Positions 17,246 to 64,000 of a DNA stretch of 64,000 nt are shown here, piece by piece. The position numbers and the translations under genes were made by a program. This DNA comes from an uncultured Gemmatimonadales bacterium. Its GTDB lineage: Bacteria > Gemmatimonadota > Gemmatimonadetes > Gemmatimonadales > GWC2-71-9. The notes below the pieces were generated by a model, which worked only from the letters and a program-made list of their open reading frames with translations, was not told the origin of the DNA and searched no databases. Within the stretch, counting starts at the first letter, position 1. Each line of letters opens with the position of its first letter. The DNA is taken from contig CAWGED010000005.1 of assembly GCA_963821525.1 (NCBI GenBank), positions 288,001-352,000 of the forward strand, given 5' to 3'.

Positions 17246-18202
17246 CCCAGCCAACACCTCATCCAATGCTCCGGCTCCACCGACGCAATGGGCGGCTCCG
17301 TGGTGCACACAGGCATCACCTCCGGGCATCGGGGATGAAAGCGGCACCCCTGCGGCCAGGCGGTGGCCGAAGGCACCATTCCCTTGATCGGGGTTAGTGG
17401 CCGGATTGGGCCGGTGAGCCGGGGTATCGAGGCGAAGAGGCCGCGGGTGTAGGGATGCGACGGCTTGGCGAACAGTTGGGCCGTCGGAGCCTCTTCTACG
17501 ATCCGGCCGGCATACATGACTGCGACCCGATCGGCCCGTCCAGCGACGATGCCAAGGTCGTGAGTAATGAGAAGCACGGCCATGCCACGCGCCTCGCGCA
17601 GCCGATCGAGGACTTCCAGGATCTGGGCCTGAACGGTCACATCCAGGGCGGTCGTCGGCTCATCCGCAATCAGCAGTTCCGGCTCAGCGCTCAACGCGAT
17701 CGCGATCATCACGCGCTGGCGCATCCCGCCGCTCAGCTGGTGGGGGTAGCTCTTGAGCCGCTCCTTGGGGTCGGGAATTCCTACCTCGACCATCAGTGCC
17801 TCGGCCCGTTGCATAGCCTCGCGGCGCGACACCGGAAAGTGAGCCAGTATCCCTTCGGCGATCTGGTCTCCCGCGGTGAAGACCGGATTCAGGCTCGTCA
17901 TGGGATCCTGGAACACCATCCCGATCCGGCGGCCCCGAATCTGGCGAAGCGCCTCGCCCTCGAGTGAGAGAACATCGGTGTCGCCCAGGGTGATTCGACT
18001 CCCCTCGTCGATCTCGCCCGGGAGCCGGGAGCAGTCGAAGCACCGCAAGACTCGTCAGGCTCTTCCCGCATCCCGATTCGCCCACCAGGGCGAGTGTCTC
18101 TCCCCGTGCGACCGTGAGGTTCACCCCATCGACCGGCTGAGAGTGGCCACCGGCGGTGGAGAAAGAAACCCTCAGATTCTCAATTCGAAGGAGCGTGCTC
18201 AT
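17241..18202 (-). CDS. oppD: Oligopeptide ABC ATP-binding protein (OppD/DppD-like); frameshift near 18025, 3' end uncertain
   Basis: [14 protein letters not shown]...GESGCGKS in one frame; [24 protein letters not shown] and GCRFHPRC in the next. Confidence 0.85.
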
Positions 18203-19044
18203 GACTCGCGCGGGTCCATGGCGTCTCGCAGCGCTTCGCCGACCAGGTTGACCGACAGCACGGTGAGAACGATCGCGACACCCGGTGCCAGGCTGGTCCA
18301 GGGAGCGGAGATGATATCCGGCTTGGCGTCGAGGATCATGCCTCCCCAGGAAGGGGTTGGCGGTTGCACGCCAAGTCCCAGGAACGAGAGGCCTGCTTCG
18401 AGCAGAATGACGTCTCCGACTGCGAGTGTCGTCGCGACGGCCAGCGGCCCGAGCACATTGGGAAGCAGGTGGCGGAAGATAATGCGCCGGCGACGGGCTC
18501 CGAGCGCTTCCGCTGAGCGAACGAACTCGAGTTGGCGGATTCGCAGCACCTCCGCCCGCACCAGTCGACTGGTCCCGAACCAGCCAGTACATCCGATGGC
18601 CAGGATGAGCAGAGTAAGCGGAATGTGATCCATCACTGCAGCGATGAGCAGAAGCATGAAGAGCCGGGGCACCGCCATGGCACCATCCACCAGGCGCATC
18701 GCCGCGGCATCGACCCAGCCTCCCGCGTAGCCCGCCACCAGGCCAATCAGTGCACCCAAGGTGACCGAGAGTGCCACCGCTCCCGCGGCCACCGCGAGCG
18801 ATACTCGGGCGCCGTGGACTACCCGCGAGAGCACATCACGGCTCAAGTGATCGGTGCCGAGCAAGTGGCTGGCATTGGGTGGCCGGAGCGAGCCATTGAG
18901 AATGTCGGGCTGTGCCCGGGGGTCCTGGAGCATCGGCGGCAGGAGCAGTGCCGCGACGACGATGATCGCGAGGATGGTGAGCCCGATTCGCCCCTCGGGA
19001 CGAGCCCAGGTAACGCGGAGCGCATACCGCACGGACTCCTTCAT
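18199..19044 (-). CDS. oppC: Peptide ABC permease (OppC/DppC-like)
   Basis: HLLGTDHLSRDVLSR, EAA-loop EFVRSAEALGA, GEALRDAMDPR. Confidence 0.92.
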   Translation of the reverse strand: MKESVRYALRVTWARPEGRIGLTILAIIVVAALLLPPMLQDPRAQPDILNGSLRPPNASHLLGTDHLSRDVLSRVVHGARVSLAVAAGAVALSVTLGALIGLVAGYAGGWVDAAAMRLVDGAMAVPRLFMLLLIAAVMDHIPLTLLILAIGCTGWFGTSRLVRAEVLRIRQLEFVRSAEALGARRRRIIFRHLLPNVLGPLAVATTLAVGDVILLEAGLSFLGLGVQPPTPSWGGMILDAKPDIISAPWTSLAPGVAIVLTVLSVNLVGEALRDAMDPRES

Positions 19045-20012
19045 CCCTCGCGAAGCCTCGGATCCAGCCAGCGGTGCGTGAGATCAGCCAGGAGACTTCC
19101 CAGCACGACGACGGCCGAAACCAGGATCGTGCTGCCCATGATCACCGGATAGTCTCGAGTCCCGATCGCCTCGGCGGCGAGCGTTCCCAGCCCGGGCCAG
19201 GCGAACACCGACTCGACGAAGACCGAGCCCGCTACCAGGAGCGGCAGCCAGAGTCCGAAGAGCGCGAGCACCGCCCCGATGGCGTTGCGCCAGGCATGGC
19301 GCCACCGGACTTGCCGTTCCTGGAGTCCCTTGGTCCGGGCCGTACGAATGAAGTCGAGGTGCAACACATCCAGCATGGCGGCACGCTGGTATCGCACTGT
19401 CGCGGCGATAGTGACGAGCGAAAGCGTCGCGGCTGGCAGAATCAGATGGCGGAGCAAGTCGGTCAAGCGGGTCAGTCGGCCGGCGTCGGGAGAGAGCAGC
19501 GGGTCATGCATGAACGCGACCGGCAACAGATGCCACTGGGTGCCGAACAGCCACACGAGACTGAGGCCGAGCCAGAAGGACGGTGTGGCGTAGAGCAGCA
19601 GGGTGAAGATGGTGAGCAGATGATCGGTCTTGCTGCCGCGACGAAACGCCTGCCAGGCGCCGAGCCAGGTGCCGAGCGTGAAGTTGATGAGCAGGACCGT
19701 CCCGCCGAGGATTAGTGTTGCGGGCAATCGTTGGGCGATCAGGCTGTTCACCGAACGATCGGGGTGCTGGATGGAGATGCCGAGGTCGCCGCGGGCCAGC
19801 GGCTTCACGAAGGCGCGAAACTGGGTGAGCAGCGGCTGGTCGAGACCGTAGCGGGCGCGGAGCGCGGCTAACGCGGCGGGAGAGAAGGGTCGCTCGTCCC
19901 CCAGGCGGGAGAGCGGATCTCCGGGGGCGAGTCGCATCAGGAAGAACATCAGGACCACAGCCACCAGGAAGGTGGCGAACGCCTGGAGCATCCGGCGGAA
20001 CGCCCAGCTCAC
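19041..20012 (-). CDS. oppB: Peptide ABC permease (OppB/DppB-like)
   Basis: APGDP, YGLDQP, FIRTARTKGL, RDYPVIMG and LDPRLR motifs. Confidence 0.92.
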   Translation of the reverse strand: MSWAFRRMLQAFATFLVAVVLMFFLMRLAPGDPLSRLGDERPFSPAALAALRARYGLDQPLLTQFRAFVKPLARGDLGISIQHPDRSVNSLIAQRLPATLILGGTVLLINFTLGTWLGAWQAFRRGSKTDHLLTIFTLLLYATPSFWLGLSLVWLFGTQWHLLPVAFMHDPLLSPDAGRLTRLTDLLRHLILPAATLSLVTIAATVRYQRAAMLDVLHLDFIRTARTKGLQERQVRWRHAWRNAIGAVLALFGLWLPLLVAGSVFVESVFAWPGLGTLAAEAIGTRDYPVIMGSTILVSAVVVLGSLLADLTHRWLDPRLREG

Positions 20013-20045
20013 CGTGCGTCCCTCGGTCTCGTCACGCGGTGGGAC

Positions 20046-21685
20046 TCACTCCCGATCCCTCGATGCTTCCTGACCGGGGCGCACTCTCCAGCGCCAGACC
20101 TCAGACCAGGGTGAATCCGGGCGCAGCGTCACCTTCTCGAACCGGGCATCTACGGCGTAGAGGAAGACGGGCGCGTACAGGAAGATTGCCGGCGCGTCGC
20201 CCTCGATCGTCACGACCGCATCCCGCCACAGCTTGCGCGCAGTCTCGGGGGAGCGGGAAGCGCGGGCCAGGAGGGTGTCCACCTGAGGATTGCAGTAGTG
20301 GGCCACGTTGGTGCCGCCGATGCCGGCACAACTCCAGCTCTGGCTGAGCCCGGATGGCGTCGGGTCCTGGGTAACGGCGTAGAGATCGAGATCGAATTTG
20401 CCGCGTTCGGCGAGTCGGCGTGTACAGCGGTGGGTCCAGCGGCTGTACCTCGAGGTCCACTCCGATCCGGCGGAGCTGTTCCTGGGCCTGAAGCGCCATC
20501 TTCCGCCTGGCGCCGCTCGTCGACGGGAAAATGGCCGTGAGGTGCAACGGGCGGCCATCCTTGTCCAGAACGCCATCGCGGTCATGGTCGGCCCAGCCTC
20601 GGGAGGCCAGGATCTCACGGGCCTTGGTCGTGTCATTCCTGGGCGGCGCCGGAGACTCGAGGCGCGTCGCCAGTACTGCTGAAACCGGTCCCGCGGGGAC
20701 CAGTCGAGCTGGGTCCGTAGGTGGACCTGACGATGGTCTCCCGATCGAGGGCAAGGGCCAGTGCCCGGCGCACCGCCGGATCTCCCAGAATAGGATGTGG
20801 CTTGGTGGTATCCGCCGGGTCCCTCTGGTTGAACAGCATGTATCCCACCATCAGGCTCGGCATCGGATAGAGCCGGAACCGCGGGTTCTGTCCCAACCGC
20901 TCGGGATTGGCGAACTGGTAAATGTTGTCTACCGCATCCGCCTCACCACCGAAGAGCAGGTTCATTCTCGCTTCGGTATCGCCGGCGATGAGAAATACCA
21001 CGCGGCTGAGGCCCGGTTTGCCGAGGAAGAAATCGTCGTTCGCAGAGAGCTCGATCAGCTGGCCGGACACCCGTCGCTTCCAGCGGTAGGGGCCGTTACC
21101 GACGGGATTCGCCGCAAAGGACGAAGCTCCTACCGAGTCAGGCGAGACTTTGGCCAGCAGGTGAGCCGGCAGCGGCGGCGCGTGATACACCGCGTCGTAG
21201 AACTGCTCGGCGTAGGGTGCGGTGAACTTGAAGATGACCCGGCGGTCGCCGTCGGCGGTGACGCTGCTGATGCGCCGGAGGAGTCCGGCGAGCTGGCCAT
21301 CCAGTTTCTCCATTCGCCCGCGCTCGATCGCGAAGACCACGTCGGCGGCGGTAACCGGCGCCCCGTCGTGCCACTTGGCCCGCGGGTCGAGCTCGAAGGC
21401 CAGAGTGGTAGGATCGATCCGGCGCCAGGACTTGGCCAGCCGCGGGACGAATCGTGGCTCATCGGTCGTGGCAAGATCCTCGGGGAGATCTGCCAGCCGG
21501 AGGAACATCAGGTCGGACACCTCACGATTCGCCGCATCGCCGCCAAACAGGGTCGGAATGGGCGACATCGCCTCACGAGCCGTGACGATCACGACCGTGC
21601 CGCGCCCGGCTGAGGTCGACTGCGCCAGTGCGGGTGCGGCGATGGTGAGGATGGAAAAACCGAGCACGACGAGAGCACGTCGCAT
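20046..21685 (-). CDS. oppA: Peptide ABC substrate-binding protein (family 5), frameshifted near 20690 and 20430
   Basis: Signal peptide; KWHDGAPVTAADVVF, PVGNGPY, VRRALALALDRE; C-terminal NVAHYCNPQVDTLL in another frame. Confidence 0.85.
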
Positions 21686-21747
21686 TGAGCTAAAGTAGTT
21701 ACGGACGGGGGGATAAAGCTACGGCGGGGGACCTGCGGGTGTTCGGT

Positions 21748-55810: not shown

Positions 55811-56920
55811 GTGGGGGTCACGCGCGAACAGACGCGGAGGCTTGCTCCGCGGACGCGGTACGGGAACGGACCGAACGGTGGCCACGCCGGGAACACGGCG
55901 GCCCGAATTCTCGTGGTTGATGATGAGGCGTCCAACGTCGAAGCACTGATCCGGATTCTCAATCGCGCCGGATTCCGTCACGTGAAGGGCACGACTGATT
56001 CGCGCTCCGTTCTCCAGCTGCTCGAAGATCACAATCCCGATCTGATCCTGCTCGACCTTCACATGCCGAATATGGACGGTTTCGCGGTGCTGACCCAGCT
56101 CCGCGCCGCGATTCCTTCCGATTGCTATCTGCCGATCCTCATGCTCACCGCCGACGACAGCGCTCAGATGAGACAACGGGCGCTTTCGATGGGAGCCAAG
56201 GATTTCCTCGGCAAGCCGTTCGACGTCCCCGAAGTGCTCCTCCGGATTCGCAACCTGATCGAGACCCGCACGTTGCACCTCGCCCTGCAGTCCCAGAACC
56301 AGAGTCTCGAGCGCCGAGTGGCCGAGCGCACCGCCGCGCTGGAGCGGACTCAGGTCGAAGTCCTGGAGCGCCTGGCGGCCGCTGCGGAGTTCCGGGACGA
56401 CGCGACCGGGCGGCACACCCAGCGGGTTGCCGCGCTGGCGGGCGCCCTCGCCGTCGATCTGGGCGTGGGAGAGACCGTCTCCAGCCTGATTCGGCGGGCG
56501 GCACCACTGCATGACGTGGGGAAGATCGGAGTGCCTGACCGCATCCTGCTCAAACCCGGGAGGCTTACCCCTCGCGAGCTGGGGGTGATGCGGACTCATA
56601 CGACGATCGGTGCCCGGATCCTGGGCGGAGGCAAGTCCGCGATGATCCAGATGGCGCAGCGTATCGCGCAGAGCCACCACGAGCGGTGGGACGGGAAAGG
56701 ATATCCCTACGGGCTGGCCGGGGAGGCGATCCCGCTCGAAGCTCGCATCGTCGCCATCGCGGACTTCTTCGACGCGCTGACTCACGACCGGCCATATCGC
56801 AGCGCGCGGCCGGTGGAAACAGTAAGGGTCGAAATCAGCCGCCGGAGCGGGGCTCATTTCGACCCTCAGGTGACTGAAGCGTTTCTCTCGTTTCAGTCTC
56901 CGGAGCAGATGCTGCGATAG
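55811..56920 (+). CDS. Response regulator REC + HD-GYP c-di-GMP phosphodiesterase (RpfG-like)
   Basis: ILVVDDE, LLDLHMP, KPF; HDVGKIG and HHERWDGKGYP; GGGAGG RBS. Confidence 0.93.
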   Translation: MGVTREQTRRLAPRTRYGNGPNGGHAGNTAARILVVDDEASNVEALIRILNRAGFRHVKGTTDSRSVLQLLEDHNPDLILLDLHMPNMDGFAVLTQLRAAIPSDCYLPILMLTADDSAQMRQRALSMGAKDFLGKPFDVPEVLLRIRNLIETRTLHLALQSQNQSLERRVAERTAALERTQVEVLERLAAAAEFRDDATGRHTQRVAALAGALAVDLGVGETVSSLIRRAAPLHDVGKIGVPDRILLKPGRLTPRELGVMRTHTTIGARILGGGKSAMIQMAQRIAQSHHERWDGKGYPYGLAGEAIPLEARIVAIADFFDALTHDRPYRSARPVETVRVEISRRSGAHFDPQVTEAFLSFQSPEQMLR

Positions 56921-59300: not shown

Positions 59301-60383
59301 GTCCTCGATACTCACTACTCCACCCCTCACCCTCCACACCGGCAGCTCCATGCCCGGTCCCAGCTCGTCCGCCCGAGGCGAGGTGATGAACACCTGAGCC
59401 TGTCCTACTCGCCGCAGCCGAGTCGCGAGCCGTTCCTGCCGCTCCTGATCCAGTTCGGCGAAGACATCGTCCAGCAGCAACGCCGGCGCTTCTCCCGCTG
59501 CCCGTCGCAGCGTTTCCAGCTCCAGCAGCTTCAGCGCGATCGCCGCACTCCGCTGCTGGCCGGTGGAGCCGAATTCCCGGACACCGTGCCCCTCGAGGCA
59601 GAGCCGCATATCGTCGCGGTGCGGTCCCACAGTGGTGGCGCCCCTCGCCTGATCCCGCGCCGCCGCCGCGTCGAGCGCGGCGGGCCATGCCTCGGGGTCC
59701 GCGAGCTCTGCTGGTCCCGCATATCCGAGATCCGCCGCGGCGCGAGGCTCGCCCAGAGCCAGCAACTCGTCGCGAAATCCGGCCTGCGCCTGTTCTACCC
59801 AGGCGAGGCGCCCGGCGACCACTCGCGCTCCAGCGCGTGCCAGCGGCGCGTCGAAGGCTCGGGCCAGATCCAGTCGTCCGGCGCGGAGTGCCGCGTTCCG
59901 CTGCCCGAGCGCGTGGCGGTATGTCGCAAGCGCCGTGAAGTATTGCCGGTCGGCCAGCGCCAGCGTGCGATCGAGGAACAATCGCCTCCCGGCCGCGGGT
60001 CCCGACGCGAGCCGTACATCCTCGGGGAGAAACGCCACCGCTACCCAGGTCCCGGCGCCATCGGCCAGCCGCCTCAGCGGCTCGCCATCCAGGACATGCT
60101 CTTTCTTGCGGCCCGCGGCGCGGTAGGTGACGGCCGCATGGTGGGACTGGTCGCGGGCTTCGAAGCGGAGAGCCACGTGAAAACCCGGCTCTCCAAACCG
60201 CACGATTTCCTGGTCCGAGGCCCCGCGCAGCGAGCGAAACAGCACGGGGAAGTAGATCGCCTCGAGCAGGCTCGTCTTACCCTCGCCGTTGGCGCCGAGG
60301 AGTACCGCGCCCTCGGGCCCTGCCTCCAGCGTGGTGTCCTTCAGGTTCCGGAAACTCCGGACTGTGAGCTCCTGGAACCGCAC
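59298..60383 (-). CDS. recF: DNA replication/repair protein RecF
   Basis: FRNL, GANGEGKTSLLEAI, GPHRDD, GSTGQQR and LLLDDVFAELD. Confidence 0.95.
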   Translation of the reverse strand: MRFQELTVRSFRNLKDTTLEAGPEGAVLLGANGEGKTSLLEAIYFPVLFRSLRGASDQEIVRFGEPGFHVALRFEARDQSHHAAVTYRAAGRKKEHVLDGEPLRRLADGAGTWVAVAFLPEDVRLASGPAAGRRLFLDRTLALADRQYFTALATYRHALGQRNAALRAGRLDLARAFDAPLARAGARVVAGRLAWVEQAQAGFRDELLALGEPRAAADLGYAGPAELADPEAWPAALDAAAARDQARGATTVGPHRDDMRLCLEGHGVREFGSTGQQRSAAIALKLLELETLRRAAGEAPALLLDDVFAELDQERQERLATRLRRVGQAQVFITSPRADELGPGMELPVWRVRGGVVSIED

Positions 60384-60811
60384 TACTGAATCGTCAGGTG
60401 ACGGATCGCGGTGTCACCGTGGGTACCGAGCACATCCACCCCGAACACCCGCACGGTAATCACTGCGCCCGAGAGACCGCCGGTCGTGATCGGCAGCCCG
60501 AAGCGCACCGTGTCCGAGCTCGCGATGAACGGTGGAAACCCCGATATCCCTCCCTCGGTCTCGAAGTACACCGTGTCTACCCCGTCGGCGTCCCCCACTC
60601 GCCCAGCCACGAAATACACCGGACCCGCGGTAATCGTGGTGTCTACAGACGGACGGTCGATCGTGCTGGTTGGGCCGCCTGCGGAAGGCCCCGTAGGGGG
60701 AGTAGGGAAGAAGATTCTGTCCCGCTCGTTGCACCCGAGCAGCGCCGTGCTAAGCACCGATATCACAAGGCCTGCGGCCAACTCCGGCAACCCGGGACGA
60801 CCCCTCTTCAT
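60383..60811 (-). CDS. Putative lipoprotein (Ig-like)
   Basis: LLGC lipobox; beta-rich; stop overlaps the recF start. Confidence 0.7.
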   Translation of the reverse strand: MKRGRPGLPELAAGLVISVLSTALLGCNERDRIFFPTPPTGPSAGGPTSTIDRPSVDTTITAGPVYFVAGRVGDADGVDTVYFETEGGISGFPPFIASSDTVRFGLPITTGGLSGAVITVRVFGVDVLGTHGDTAIRHLTIQ

Positions 60812-61799: not shown

Positions 61800-61939
61800 A
61801 CATAGCGACGAAAATACTAACAGCAACTGTAGATATGATATCAATTAACAAATTGTGCTTTAATAACTTATGCTGAAATAGTTGCACTAGCTGTATATTT
61901 TATTGACACCTCATGAAAGCCAACGGCACCTGAGTTGCT
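61800..61939 (+). promoter_or_regulatory. AT-rich regulatory region with sigma54 promoter and IHF-like site
   Basis: CGGCACCTGAGTTGCT at 61924-61939 (GG-N10-GC); CTTTAATAACTTA at about 61858-61870 resembles an IHF site; most AT-rich stretch seen in the window. Confidence 0.7.
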
Positions 61940-62066
61940 CCTCCTCCAGCAGAGGTGCGATTGCCCGATTTTCGCCATGGGTTCTGTCGCCAACGAGGAG
62001 TTCTCTACGATAACCCGGTGTCAGGCTGTCTACGACTACCCTCTGGACGGAAGGCGCGTTGATGCG

Positions 62067-62225
62067 ATGACGGATCTCTACGGTCTGAACGATTATCCCG
62101 CACGGGATTCGATTCAGTACGGCTCGATTGCGGTGAGGGTTATCCTGATCGCGCTGGGTGGCTGGATCGCCTCGAAGGGTTTCGGCTGGCTGTTGACAAA
62201 GCTCGGCTGGGACCAGCCAAGGTGA
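62067..62225 (+). CDS. Small single-TM protein (52 aa; alternative start 61977)
   Basis: GGAAGG upstream; MTDLYGLNDYPARDSIQYGSIAVRVILIALGGWIASKGFGWLLTKLGWDQPR; stop abuts the next gene. Confidence 0.55.
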   Translation: MTDLYGLNDYPARDSIQYGSIAVRVILIALGGWIASKGFGWLLTKLGWDQPR

Positions 62226-62230
62226 AAACC

Positions 62231-62830
62231 ATGAGAGGTCAAGCGCGCGCTGTGGTACGGAACCTGAAGCCGAGTCGTCAGCGCAGCCTCATCGCGCTCG
62301 GCGTCGGTCTGACTCTCGCGCTTGCCGCCATCAGTTGCGGCAGCAGCGACCTTCCGACTGCGGACCCCTCCACTCAAGCAGTGGTCTCGCCCAACTCGAA
62401 TCTTGAGTTGCTGGATCCAGCGAAGGGCCTGCTCGGCACCGGACTCCTGGCTTGCCGAGTTGAACCGTATCAGGTGACTACAAAGACCATCGGTCCGGCC
62501 GGTGGCCGAATCGAGGTCGGCCGGCACGTTCTGGTAATCCCTGCCGGCGCACTGTCTGCTCCGACTCAGATCACCGCCGAAGCGCCGAGCGATCCGGTGG
62601 CCTCGGTTCGCTTCTCTCCTGAAGGCTTGCAATTCAAGGAGGGGCTCGCGGCCCGCCTCACGCTGGACTATTCGAATTGCCCGCTCGGCCGGTTGCAGAT
62701 TCTGAAGCGCATTGCCTACACCACCGAGCGGCTCAACATCCTCAGCTACCTGCTCTCGCGGGACAATCTCCTGCTGCAGCGGGTCAGTGGCGATGTCGGG
62801 CACTTCTCTCGGTACGCGGTGGCCTGGTAG
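62231..62830 (+). CDS. ZU5-like lipoprotein ending in HFSRYAVAW
   Basis: AISC lipobox; IGPAGGRIEV...LVIPAGALSAPTQIT ZU5-type motif; PEGLQF; C-terminal HFS motif. Confidence 0.8.
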   Translation: MRGQARAVVRNLKPSRQRSLIALGVGLTLALAAISCGSSDLPTADPSTQAVVSPNSNLELLDPAKGLLGTGLLACRVEPYQVTTKTIGPAGGRIEVGRHVLVIPAGALSAPTQITAEAPSDPVASVRFSPEGLQFKEGLAARLTLDYSNCPLGRLQILKRIAYTTERLNILSYLLSRDNLLLQRVSGDVGHFSRYAVAW

Positions 62831-62832
62831 AA

Positions 62833-64000
62833 ATGCAGTCCCGGGATAACTCGACTTCCGAGGCTCGGGCCGCCGGCTCGGGGGCGAAGCCTCGCGCCAG
62901 CGAACTTCTCGCCGAAGCCCAGGCCCACGAGAGATCGGGCCGGATCAGCGAAGCACTCGACGCGTACCATGTTGCCATCGCCTCCGCCGAGCGCTCGGCG
63001 GAGAATGCTGTGCTCGCGGAAGCGCTCCGTCGCCTGAGCATAGTCCACCATCACCAGAACGATGGCGATCGGGCCCGCGCGCTGTGCCAGCGGAGCTATG
63101 AAACGGCGCTCGCGATGGGGGAGTCGGGGCTGGCAGCTGAGGCATTGAACACTCTCGGTGGGTATGAGATCGAGCACGGCGCGATGCGGAGCGCCGCGGA
63201 GTACTTCGAGCGCGCGCTCACGCTCGGAGGGGCCGATCCCCGCCTGCGCTGCCGGATCGAACAGAACCTCGGCATCCTCGCCACCATTCGCGGCGACCAC
63301 GCGGCGGCACTGCGGCACTACGGAGCTTCACTCGAGGCTTCGCAGGCCATGGGCGACGACAAGGGCTGCGCTATCGCCTATCACAATCTTGGAATGATCA
63401 GCGCGGATCGTAAGCAGTGGGCCGACGCGGAGCGCTTTTACGAGCAGAGCCGCACGCTGGCTGAGCGGATCGGCGATGTGCACCTGCAGGGTCTGTGTCT
63501 CCTGAACCATTCGGAAGTCCACATTGCCCGTCAGGCCTACGAACTGGCCCGGCGCGACGCGGAGGCTGCATTGGCCATCTTCGACCGGCTCGGCTCCCGA
63601 CTGGACAAGTCCGATGCGTACCGAGTCATCGGGATGGTCTATCGGGACACGGGACGCATGCAGTTGGCGGAATCCCGGCTGCGGAGCGCGATTGATCTCG
63701 CCGTGAGCACCGGTTCGATCCTGAGCGAGGCCGAGGCCTCGCGCGAGCTGGCCTGGCTCTATCAGGCTCAGGGGCGAAATCAGGATGCACTCGGGCTGCT
63801 CAACGCATCCTATCGCCTGTTCCGCCGGCTCGACGCCGCGCTGGACCTGGTGGACGTCCAGGCCAAGGTCGAAGAGCTCGAGGGAACCTTCCTCGCGGTG
63901 GTGCAGGACTGGGGTCAGTCGATCGAATCGGCGGACAGCTACACCTTCGGCCACTGCGGCCGGGTCGCGGAGTATGCGGAGGCAGTGGGCCGTGCGCTCG
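62833..64000 (+). CDS. TPR-repeat + HD-GYP domain protein, 3'-truncated by window edge (absent from ORF track)
   Basis: Hand translation open to the window end: TPRs (AEALNTLG, IEQNLGIL, AIAYHNLGM, AYRVIGM), then SIESADSYTFGHCGRVAEYA, typical of the HD-GYP N-terminus; no signal peptide. Confidence 0.85.
   Translation, partial: MQSRDNSTSEARAAGSGAKPRASELLAEAQAHERSGRISEALDAYHVAIASAERSAENAVLAEALRRLSIVHHHQNDGDRARALCQRSYETALAMGESGLAAEALNTLGGYEIEHGAMRSAAEYFERALTLGGADPRLRCRIEQNLGILATIRGDHAAALRHYGASLEASQAMGDDKGCAIAYHNLGMISADRKQWADAERFYEQSRTLAERIGDVHLQGLCLLNHSEVHIARQAYELARRDAEAALAIFDRLGSRLDKSDAYRVIGMVYRDTGRMQLAESRLRSAIDLAVSTGSILSEAEASRELAWLYQAQGRNQDALGLLNASYRLFRRLDAALDLVDVQAKVEELEGTFLAVVQDWGQSIESADSYTFGHCGRVAEYAEAVGRAL

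Follow-up and report, generated by a model that had tools for sequence, protein, structure and literature searches.

A lipoprotein of predicted ZU5/GAIN fold encoded beside a TPR-HD-GYP protein in Gemmatimonadota: a candidate self-processing peptide signal

Why should a lipoprotein that ends seven residues past a predicted self-cleavage site be encoded directly upstream of a cytoplasmic protein in which TPR repeats run into an HD-GYP domain? The question is raised by the right-hand end of a 64,000-nt stretch of an uncultured Gemmatimonadales genome (G000:C5:288001-352000 in the notation used here for the source genome), and this whole stretch is referred to below as the window. The answer favored here, which is considered fairly probable, is that the lipoprotein may be a self-processing pheromone precursor, with a C-terminal peptide that would be imported and read by a TPR-gated cyclic di-GMP (c-di-GMP) phosphodiesterase. 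The gene order, the motifs and their conservation, and the occurrence of short precursors at related loci can be read directly from the genomes.

The candidate precursor is a 199-amino-acid protein encoded at 62231-62830 (+), and its open reading frame (ORF) closes with GDVGHFSRYAVAW followed by a stop codon. A hydrophobic N-terminus with an invariant lipobox-type cysteine, Cys36 (62336-62338, +), constitutes a predicted export signal. The motif H191-F192-S193 lies at 62801-62809 (+), with the predicted cut between F192 and S193, and the predicted released heptapeptide, SRYAVAW, is encoded at 62807-62827 (+). A search for related loci with the single protein gave 3 close loci only; the first homolog search with the lipoprotein gave 1183 homologs, and the terminus HFSxYAxxW is present in 119 of the best 120. 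Cys36, Cys75, Cys150, H191, F192, S193 and Y195 are invariant in 95/95 aligned homologs. Among 150 representatives at 50% identity, two are truncated or frameshifted, and the 148 that bear the motif all contain H and F, followed by S in 147 and T in one; exactly seven residues follow the cut in 143 of these. The profile used to rank the representatives itself contains the motif, so the invariance of H-F-S/T holds for this class of proteins. Position 2 of the tail is variable among the representatives (R in 88, D in 20, G in 10, and others). In all counts given here and below, kin are not independent.

The source genome contains related genes elsewhere. An orphan paralog at G000:C19:371299-371990 (-) ends in HFSRYAVAW, has a His/Glu/Lys-rich helical insert and has no TPR gene nearby; a frameshift separates its signal peptide from its domain. 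In a second module, at G000:C4:142384-146291 (L135:8384-12291), a sigma-54-type site is accompanied by a lipoprotein-like ORF of 277 aa, a sigma-54 activator, a ZU5-like lipoprotein in divergent orientation, which ends in GF-SRYAIAY and lacks the His, and a TPR-only gene; an OppA-like gene lies upstream on the opposite strand.

Searched by sequence, the lipoprotein matched no solved structure, and no family for it was found in NCBIfam or PADLOC. PF00791 (ZU5) is matched weakly by 40/95 homologs (best E 6e-4). In the ESM Atlas, the lipoprotein led to Gemmatimonadota clusters and to one cluster with 50% ZU5; one of the short precursors described below gave leads below 0.9 only. The AlphaFold model is a beta-sandwich with a mean predicted local distance difference test score (pLDDT) of 84, and above 90 across most of the domain, in which HFS is located between strands 184-189 and 194-198, the latter being the last strand. 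Foldseek ranks ankyrin ZU5 first (E 1e-4), and the VIA search gives AnkB ZU5 a Z of 11.6 (root-mean-square deviation 2.5, 111 residues aligned), with UNC5b at 8.8, the CD97 GAIN domain at 8.4, NLRP1 at 4.9 and Nup98 at 3.8-4.6. The two fold searches confirm the ZU5-type domain that a first-pass annotation of the window, made from the sequence alone, had proposed, though the window protein has no Pfam match; the positions given there for the lipoprotein and its HFS motif are likewise confirmed from the ORF.

The VIA alignments end at model residue 192 opposite residue 1212 of NLRP1 (6x6c) and residue 863 of Nup98 (1ko6). NLRP1 S1213 is the residue mutated to test cleavage and Nup98 H862 is the His of HFS (PMC3210808); the same source describes Nup98 His mutants that retain cleavage. 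Two features that mark the autoproteolytic superfamily, a ZU5/GAIN-B beta-sandwich and H-x-S/T at the turn before the last strand, are both present in the model of the lipoprotein, the second as H191-F192-S193. Bacterial MAIN domains cut at HF|S, and their products stay bound (bioRxiv 10.64898/2026.05.12.724683). Given the fold, the register of the cut site and the precedent of the MAIN domains, self-cleavage of the lipoprotein at F192|S193 is likely by analogy. Conservation of HFS among homologs, on which the first-pass annotation had made its proposal depend, holds, in the form H-F-S/T, for all 148 motif-bearing representatives.

The putative receptor begins with an ATG at 62833, 2 nt past the lipoprotein stop, and extends on the forward strand to the end of the window at 64000 and beyond it to G000:C5:352446, giving a protein of 537 aa. 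Outside the window, its stop is overlapped by a TPR-only gene of 335 aa (C5:352443-353450). Both the 2-nt spacing and the TPR protein running into an HD-GYP domain had been noted in the first pass, and the second can now be extended to complete motifs: H374, H406-D407, H435, H459-H460-E461, G467-Y468-P469, D488 and R497xxR500, which make up the HD and GYP motifs. Pfam matches are HD_5 (E 5e-37) and TPR_12 (E 2e-27). The HD pair, HHExxDGxGYP, the metal ligands and RxxR/K, which together characterize HD-GYP domains, are all found. The HD part of the model is closest in Foldseek to c-di-GMP-bound HD-GYP domains (E 2e-10; DvhD 9rbz, 4mcw and PA4781 4r8z), and the receptor is predicted from its motifs and model to be a c-di-GMP phosphodiesterase. 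In the receptor model, which has a pLDDT of 90, the helical-repeat region, at about residues 22-336, consists of all-helical repeats. It contains an Asn ladder, N106/N145/N185/N225, each residue of which is conserved in at least 90% of 94 rows; such ladders bind peptide backbones. For the TPR part, LGN/Pins structures in complex with partner proteins rank first in Foldseek, and no RRNPP chain is among the listed matches (ranks to 50), though the receptor may yet be kin to RRNPP proteins. A reading of the locus as a defense system is not supported, the PADLOC matches of the receptor being generic TPR/HD matches.

The two genes are paired well beyond the window. A ZU5 profile matches 127/301 genomes of the phylum, and receptor residues 1-368 match 113 of the same 301. 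Pairing was counted over the 150 listed places per search (72 further places exist for ZU5 and 29 for the receptor). Among the matches listed, a TPR gene lies directly downstream in 59/62 ZU5 matches at E<1e-50, in keeping with the synteny that had been predicted, and a ZU5 gene lies directly upstream in 74/99 receptor matches at E<1e-80 and within 5 kb in 86/99; linkage is weaker for the distant matches listed (22/50 within 5 kb). The TPR-HD-GYP gene is the most frequent direct neighbor of the ZU5 gene, and the peptide class tracks the receptor clade. Locus variants include TPR-only genes, interposed sigma-54 activators and arrays in which as many as six ZU5 genes have differing tails, and some receptor relatives are extended by GGDEF and STAND-type AAA domains. 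At L035 (G042:C2), L179 (G553:C67) and L045 (G283:C1), double-TPR proteins (about 670-740 aa) or long TPR-HD-GYP proteins are surrounded by tandem arrays in which 3-6 ZU5 lipoproteins carry different tails.

A key indication that the peptide is more than a part of the fold comes from related loci, where the tail persists without the ZU5 domain. For the receptor family designated f8, the upstream gene was read for the 30 best receptor matches and 20 of the next 25. These 50 loci contain 20 ZU5 lipoproteins ending in HF|S and a tail, 25 short precursors and 5 genes that are neither or are truncated. The short precursors are about 44-87 aa in length; their lipobox-type signal is followed by a linker that varies and, at the C-terminus, by a core that is repeated 2-3 times in 7/25; most end in a core like the ZU5 tail. 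With a profile of the post-cut tails of 9 ZU5 proteins, the core is detected in 14/18 short precursors (p<0.05 versus their own shuffles), and the best 7-mer falls in the C-terminal part of the protein. A broader profile of 20 tails detects it in 12/23, with 3 not parsed, and Gly-rich repeats miss this profile. A second type of short precursor (L055, L150, L153, L154 and L155; about 44-51 aa) is also lipoprotein-like and located upstream of a receptor, and three of these end in GVYA-containing tails.

The receptors that accompany short precursors are not monophyletic (approximately unbiased test, p 5e-93, 26 versus 27 rows). The ZU5-linked receptors of L105, L107 and L110 nest among them, and the receptor of L147, where the short precursor carries AIYVAAGG, is sister to that of L145, where the ZU5 tail is SIYTAVGG. 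Across the two forms, peptides are more alike where the receptors are closer (rho -0.58, permutation p 0.008), subject to the non-independence of kin. As part of the favored explanation, and with the same fair degree of probability, the conserved message would be the peptide and not the fold, with several lineages encoding it in short precursors that lack ZU5.

Repeated cores also bring to mind a locus for a ribosomally synthesized and post-translationally modified peptide (RiPP), in which the TPR region would bind the precursor and the HD metalloenzyme would modify the core. Repeated cores are reminiscent of RiPP precursors and are counted in favor of this idea, as is a weak match to the TPR protein HaaT (E 8e-13, far under the cut-off). 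The precursors, however, bear export signals, c-di-GMP-bound HD-GYP domains are the top matches in fold to the HD part, and relatives of the receptor are fused to GGDEF domains, which together make a RiPP-like locus very improbable.

Shorter forms were also sought in the order to which the window belongs, by a pattern search of 401 genomes for tails that no Phe codon precedes. This gave 19 matches in 17/401 genomes, versus 9 for the reversed control; 7 of the 19 have no stop and 12 have one, and 3 look like chance. Asn occupies the free position in 8/12 stop-bearing matches: two full ZU5 variants, two truncated ZU5 copies, a 56-aa lipobox ORF, a 41-aa ORF and two 18-aa ORFs. The 56-aa and 41-aa ORFs are located behind double-TPR genes. 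In the family of the window, two ORFs that end in SNYA[IV]AW adjoin TPR genes: the 56-aa one with the lipobox and a truncated ZU5 of 100 aa.

The smallest forms are four 18-aa ORFs (L181-L184, e.g. G004:C24:221202-221258), which have a strong ribosome-binding site, end in SNYA[IV]AW and are divergent from a gene for a BTAD-STAND-TPR regulator. They occur beside the 4 closest regulators (at least 78% identity) and were not seen beside the other 26/30, for which at least 2 upstream regions were cut wrongly. Their last 7 codons contain 13 synonymous and 4 I/V changes, the corresponding figures for the first 11 codons being 7 and 26; by this comparison, the terminal 7 codons are under purifying selection. 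In layout, the locus is reminiscent of Rgg/SHP, and the 18-aa ORFs may be a separate system.

These short forms bear directly on a plainer account, in which the tail is the structural last strand only. The whole lipoprotein would then serve as a sensor in the periplasm or as a surface protein, regulated together with the phosphodiesterase, and the short ORFs would be remnants in decay. The alternating hydrophobic pattern of the tail would suit a buried strand, and both the orphan frameshifted paralog at C19 and the truncated ZU5 copies in arrays are counted in favor of this account. MAIN products, moreover, remain associated, and their C-terminal piece is without known signaling in the account given by the preprint (bioRxiv 10.64898/2026.05.12.724683). 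Remnants, however, would not keep a signal peptide and a core over 25 loci with variable linkers, would not repeat the core 2-3 times, and would not leave the final 7 codons of the 18-aa ORF under purifying selection; nor was a conserved membrane partner seen that bridges the compartments. A purely structural tail therefore seems improbable.

A physical link between tail and receptor was addressed by co-folding receptor residues 20-350 with lipoprotein residues 170-199. The score of 0.50, versus 0.02 for the best control, is weak support for a peptide-TPR complex: the 0.50 mark is reached by 116/157 solved pairs and 2/215 mismatched pairs, and the range up to 0.60 holds only 18 of the solved pairs and both of the mismatched ones. 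Runs share at least 56% of contacts, and the partner pLDDT is at least 43. Binding of the peptide in the TPR groove, which the first pass had suggested modeling, gains weak support. E114 goes with Arg2 peptides in 16/18 and 6/6 cases and is rare otherwise (1/6, and 4/37 plus 8 Asp); this covariation was recognized post hoc, is confounded by kinship and is a lead only.

It is also conceivable, though unlikely, that the tail is a signal handled by other partners, being cut out by an outside protease, or being read by the TPR-only neighbor or by some other receptor that is linked to a sigma-54 activator; the HD-GYP enzyme would then act at a later step. The short precursors must rely on a peptidase, and ZU5 variants with Ser replaced by Ala or without His retain the tail. 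TPR-only genes often directly follow ZU5 genes, several then with a sigma-54 activator, and the 18-aa ORFs adjoin a BTAD-STAND-TPR regulator instead of an HD-GYP protein. Against this stand the H-F-S/T motif, unbroken in 148/148 representatives of the class of the window, the position of TPR-HD-GYP as the commonest direct neighbor, and the fact that the complex support, weak as it is, was obtained with the TPR-HD-GYP receptor.

For the self-processing precursor, the following sequence of events is proposed. A sigma-54 promoter, the site of which is described below, would drive the unit. The lipoprotein would be exported, lipid-anchored at Cys36, as its sequence indicates, and folded as a predicted ZU5/GAIN domain, and it would cut itself at F192|S193 via an N-O acyl shift, by homology with bacterial MAIN domains. 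SRYAVAW would at first be held as the last strand, to be freed through slow exchange or else upon unfolding, damage or force. An Opp-type transporter, suggested by the neighbors of homologs, would then import the peptide, which may bind in the TPR groove and switch the HD-GYP c-di-GMP phosphodiesterase in either direction. Opp imports peptides in RRNPP systems. In 12 genomes (counted from a 99-row table with duplicates and mostly 1-kb flanks), Opp-like genes lie no more than about 4 kb from the receptor, and at L125-L128, among 7 genomes of one genus, the gene order is ZU5, divergent oppA-oppB-oppC, receptor. The source genome encodes Opp homologs, one set of them within the window: oppA/oppB/oppC-like genes lie at about 18200-21700 (-), the oppA match being in three pieces, perhaps through frameshifts. 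The central claim of the first-pass annotation, a cleaved heptapeptide that regulates the TPR-HD-GYP enzyme, gains from the fold and cut-site register, the motif, the synteny, the ZU5-less precursors, the Opp neighbors and the weak complex model, with cleavage itself argued by analogy; its suggested route through a small transmembrane (TM) protein does not hold, for reasons given below.

Several observations weigh against this scheme. In the model, the tail forms an integral strand of the domain and, since MAIN products remain bound, release of the peptide would need a trigger. At L061 and L066 the nucleophile Ser is replaced by Ala, so that this chemistry is not possible, and the tail is kept; L050, L036 and the C4 copy of the source genome lack the His and keep the tail, and L051 lacks the whole motif yet has the tail. 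The second type of short precursor (L055, L153-155) misses the 20-tail profile. A ZU5-less precursor with the exact end SRYAVAW was not found in the 401 genomes, and the short forms in the family of the window carry N at position 2. There is no precursor upstream of the receptors at L077, L079-081, L083, L099 and L104. Finally, 7/12 Opp-linked genomes belong to one genus, and the locus of the window is without adjacent Opp, most loci having been viewed with only about 1 kb of flank.

A more specific and decidedly tentative elaboration can also be put forward. ZU5 may be a cage for a pre-cut pheromone, a counterpart in trans to the tethered agonist of G-protein-coupled receptors of the adhesion class (aGPCRs), that is freed only by envelope pulling, damage or lysis. 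A mechanical or damage state would then be broadcast to self and kin via Opp and the TPR-gated c-di-GMP phosphodiesterase, and the cage-less lineages would have converted the system, several times, to constitutive precursors.

Upstream of the lipoprotein gene, a sigma-54-type -24/-12 site, GGCAC-N5-TTGC, is located at 61925-61938 (+). The pattern has 1 match in the window versus 0.62 expected per window, so that the site, which the first-pass annotation had called a promoter, is by itself not above chance. The claim is strengthened by homologous loci: GGCA-N6-TTGC is found 5' of 17/33 distinct ZU5 genes, versus 0.3% of random 420-nt windows, and rpoN is found in the source genome. An AT-rich stretch 5' of the site, at 61800-61920, is partly conserved in L002-L004 and is a candidate activator or integration host factor region. 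RNA contigs of relatives from two libraries (X1 record 6 and X4 record 25) span the lipoprotein-receptor junction, which proves neither transcription nor a single transcript; the RNA runs contained <10% of the query words.

Between the site and the lipoprotein gene lies a hydrophobic 52-aa small TM ORF (62067-62225, +), which the first-pass annotation had counted as part of the system and as a possible route for the peptide signal. It falls within a lineage-specific insertion of ~267 bp that was seen in the window, L002 and L003 alone and is missing from L004; the insertion interrupts the lipoprotein gene at its ancestral 5' end. The copy in L003 has a frameshifted C-terminus. The ORF has no Pfam match, and no ORF resembling it was seen in the remaining homologous loci. 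It is a recent insertion outside the conserved unit, and a role as transducer was rejected because it is confined to that insertion and no counterpart was seen at the other loci.

Further upstream, a small lipoprotein-like ORF with a weak Ig-like match (Big_7, E 0.016) is encoded at 60383-60790 (-). A response regulator-like protein with an HD-GYP domain is encoded 5 kb upstream, at 55811-56920 (+), and is also present in L002 and L004.

Among known systems, the locus most resembles the RRNPP(A) systems (Rap-Phr, NprR-NprX, PlcR-PapR and Rgg-SHP), in which the gene for an exported precursor of a short C-terminal peptide adjoins that for a cytoplasmic TPR receptor (PMC10075063). Some precursors of relatives of the window protein have repeated cores, as do some RRNPPA propeptides (PMC11343458), and an Opp-type importer is encoded near some homologous loci. 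The differences are that the host is a member of the Gemmatimonadota, not the Bacillota, that the precursor, a lipoprotein of 199 aa, is predicted to carry its own cutter, that the receptor has 537 aa and a c-di-GMP phosphodiesterase output predicted from its motifs, that the promoter is of the sigma-54 type, and that LGN/Pins structures, not RRNPP proteins, are the fold matches listed for the TPR region. Measured against the RRNPP criteria given in PMC10075063, TPRs are present and the genes are adjacent (the 2-nt gap, and 59/62 best homologs among the matches listed), and lipoprotein signals are admitted at the 'relaxed' level only. The lengths depart: 199 aa for a propeptide of 10-100 aa, a range into which the short precursors of relatives fall, and 537 aa for a receptor of 250-500 aa, the TPR-only neighbor having 335 aa. 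As it departs from two of the five criteria and has a host outside the Bacillota, the system would be RRNPP-like in its working and not a member. The earlier analogy with RRNPP receptors thus stands for the TPRs and the adjacency, and is weakened by the lengths and by the lack of an RRNPP structure among the listed fold matches.

The MAIN proteins share with the lipoprotein an exported bacterial GAIN-like beta-sandwich with an HF|S site. They are large (mean 158 kDa), have a C-terminal anchor and release an N-terminal ectodomain, and the preprint assigns no signaling to the C-terminal fragment (bioRxiv 10.64898/2026.05.12.724683). The domain of the window stands alone, with an N-terminal anchor and a 7-mer as its predicted free piece, and the 199-aa lipoprotein has neither the large N-terminal adhesion or enzyme ectodomain nor the C-terminal surface anchor that characterizes MAIN proteins. 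ZU5, TPR, HD-GYP, lipoprotein and Gemmatimon- each have 0 occurrences in the main text of the preprint. The ZU5-superfamily autoproteases (PIDD, Nup98, NLRP1/CARD8 FIIND, aGPCR GAIN and polymorphic-toxin ZU5) share the fold, motif and cut-site register and, as described in PMC3482391 and PMC3210808, are domains in large proteins whose C-terminal piece stays on an effector or seven-transmembrane domain; in aGPCRs, the strand after the cut is the agonist. The protein of the window, in contrast, stops 7 residues past the cut, and its predicted receptor is separate and cytoplasmic. The receptor shares its fold and its metal and GYP motifs with HD-GYP phosphodiesterases such as DvhD (9rbz), 4mcw and PA4781 (4r8z), and differs in having as input a TPR region tied to a peptide precursor; in some relatives, GGDEF and STAND-type AAA domains are present in addition.

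Bacterial ZU5 domains are placed in toxins and surface proteins (PMC3482391) or in apoptosis systems (PMC8195603) in the accounts those sources give, not in this pairing. In the portions of the literature covered by the search, there was no description of a ZU5 lipoprotein paired with TPR-HD-GYP, no publication on bacterial ZU5 autoproteolysis with HFS and none that joins ZU5 and HD-GYP; the tables of 15,000 homologs that accompany the MAIN preprint and the supplement of PMC3482391 may list the proteins. If the proposed scheme is true, it would supply a bacterial GAIN/ZU5-type domain with a receptor and a signaling role for its C-terminal fragment, a role that the MAIN preprint does not assign, and would place TPR-read peptide signaling with c-di-GMP output in the Gemmatimonadota, a diderm phylum. 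The series from a self-cutting domain to a short precursor to an 18-aa ORF would further illustrate one way for peptide pheromones to originate. The use of a self-cutting GAIN/ZU5 domain as the precursor of a peptide signal fits neither the RRNPP nor the MAIN/ZU5 kind and may for that reason represent a new kind of system; on a more cautious view, it may be a far variant of RRNPP-type signaling.

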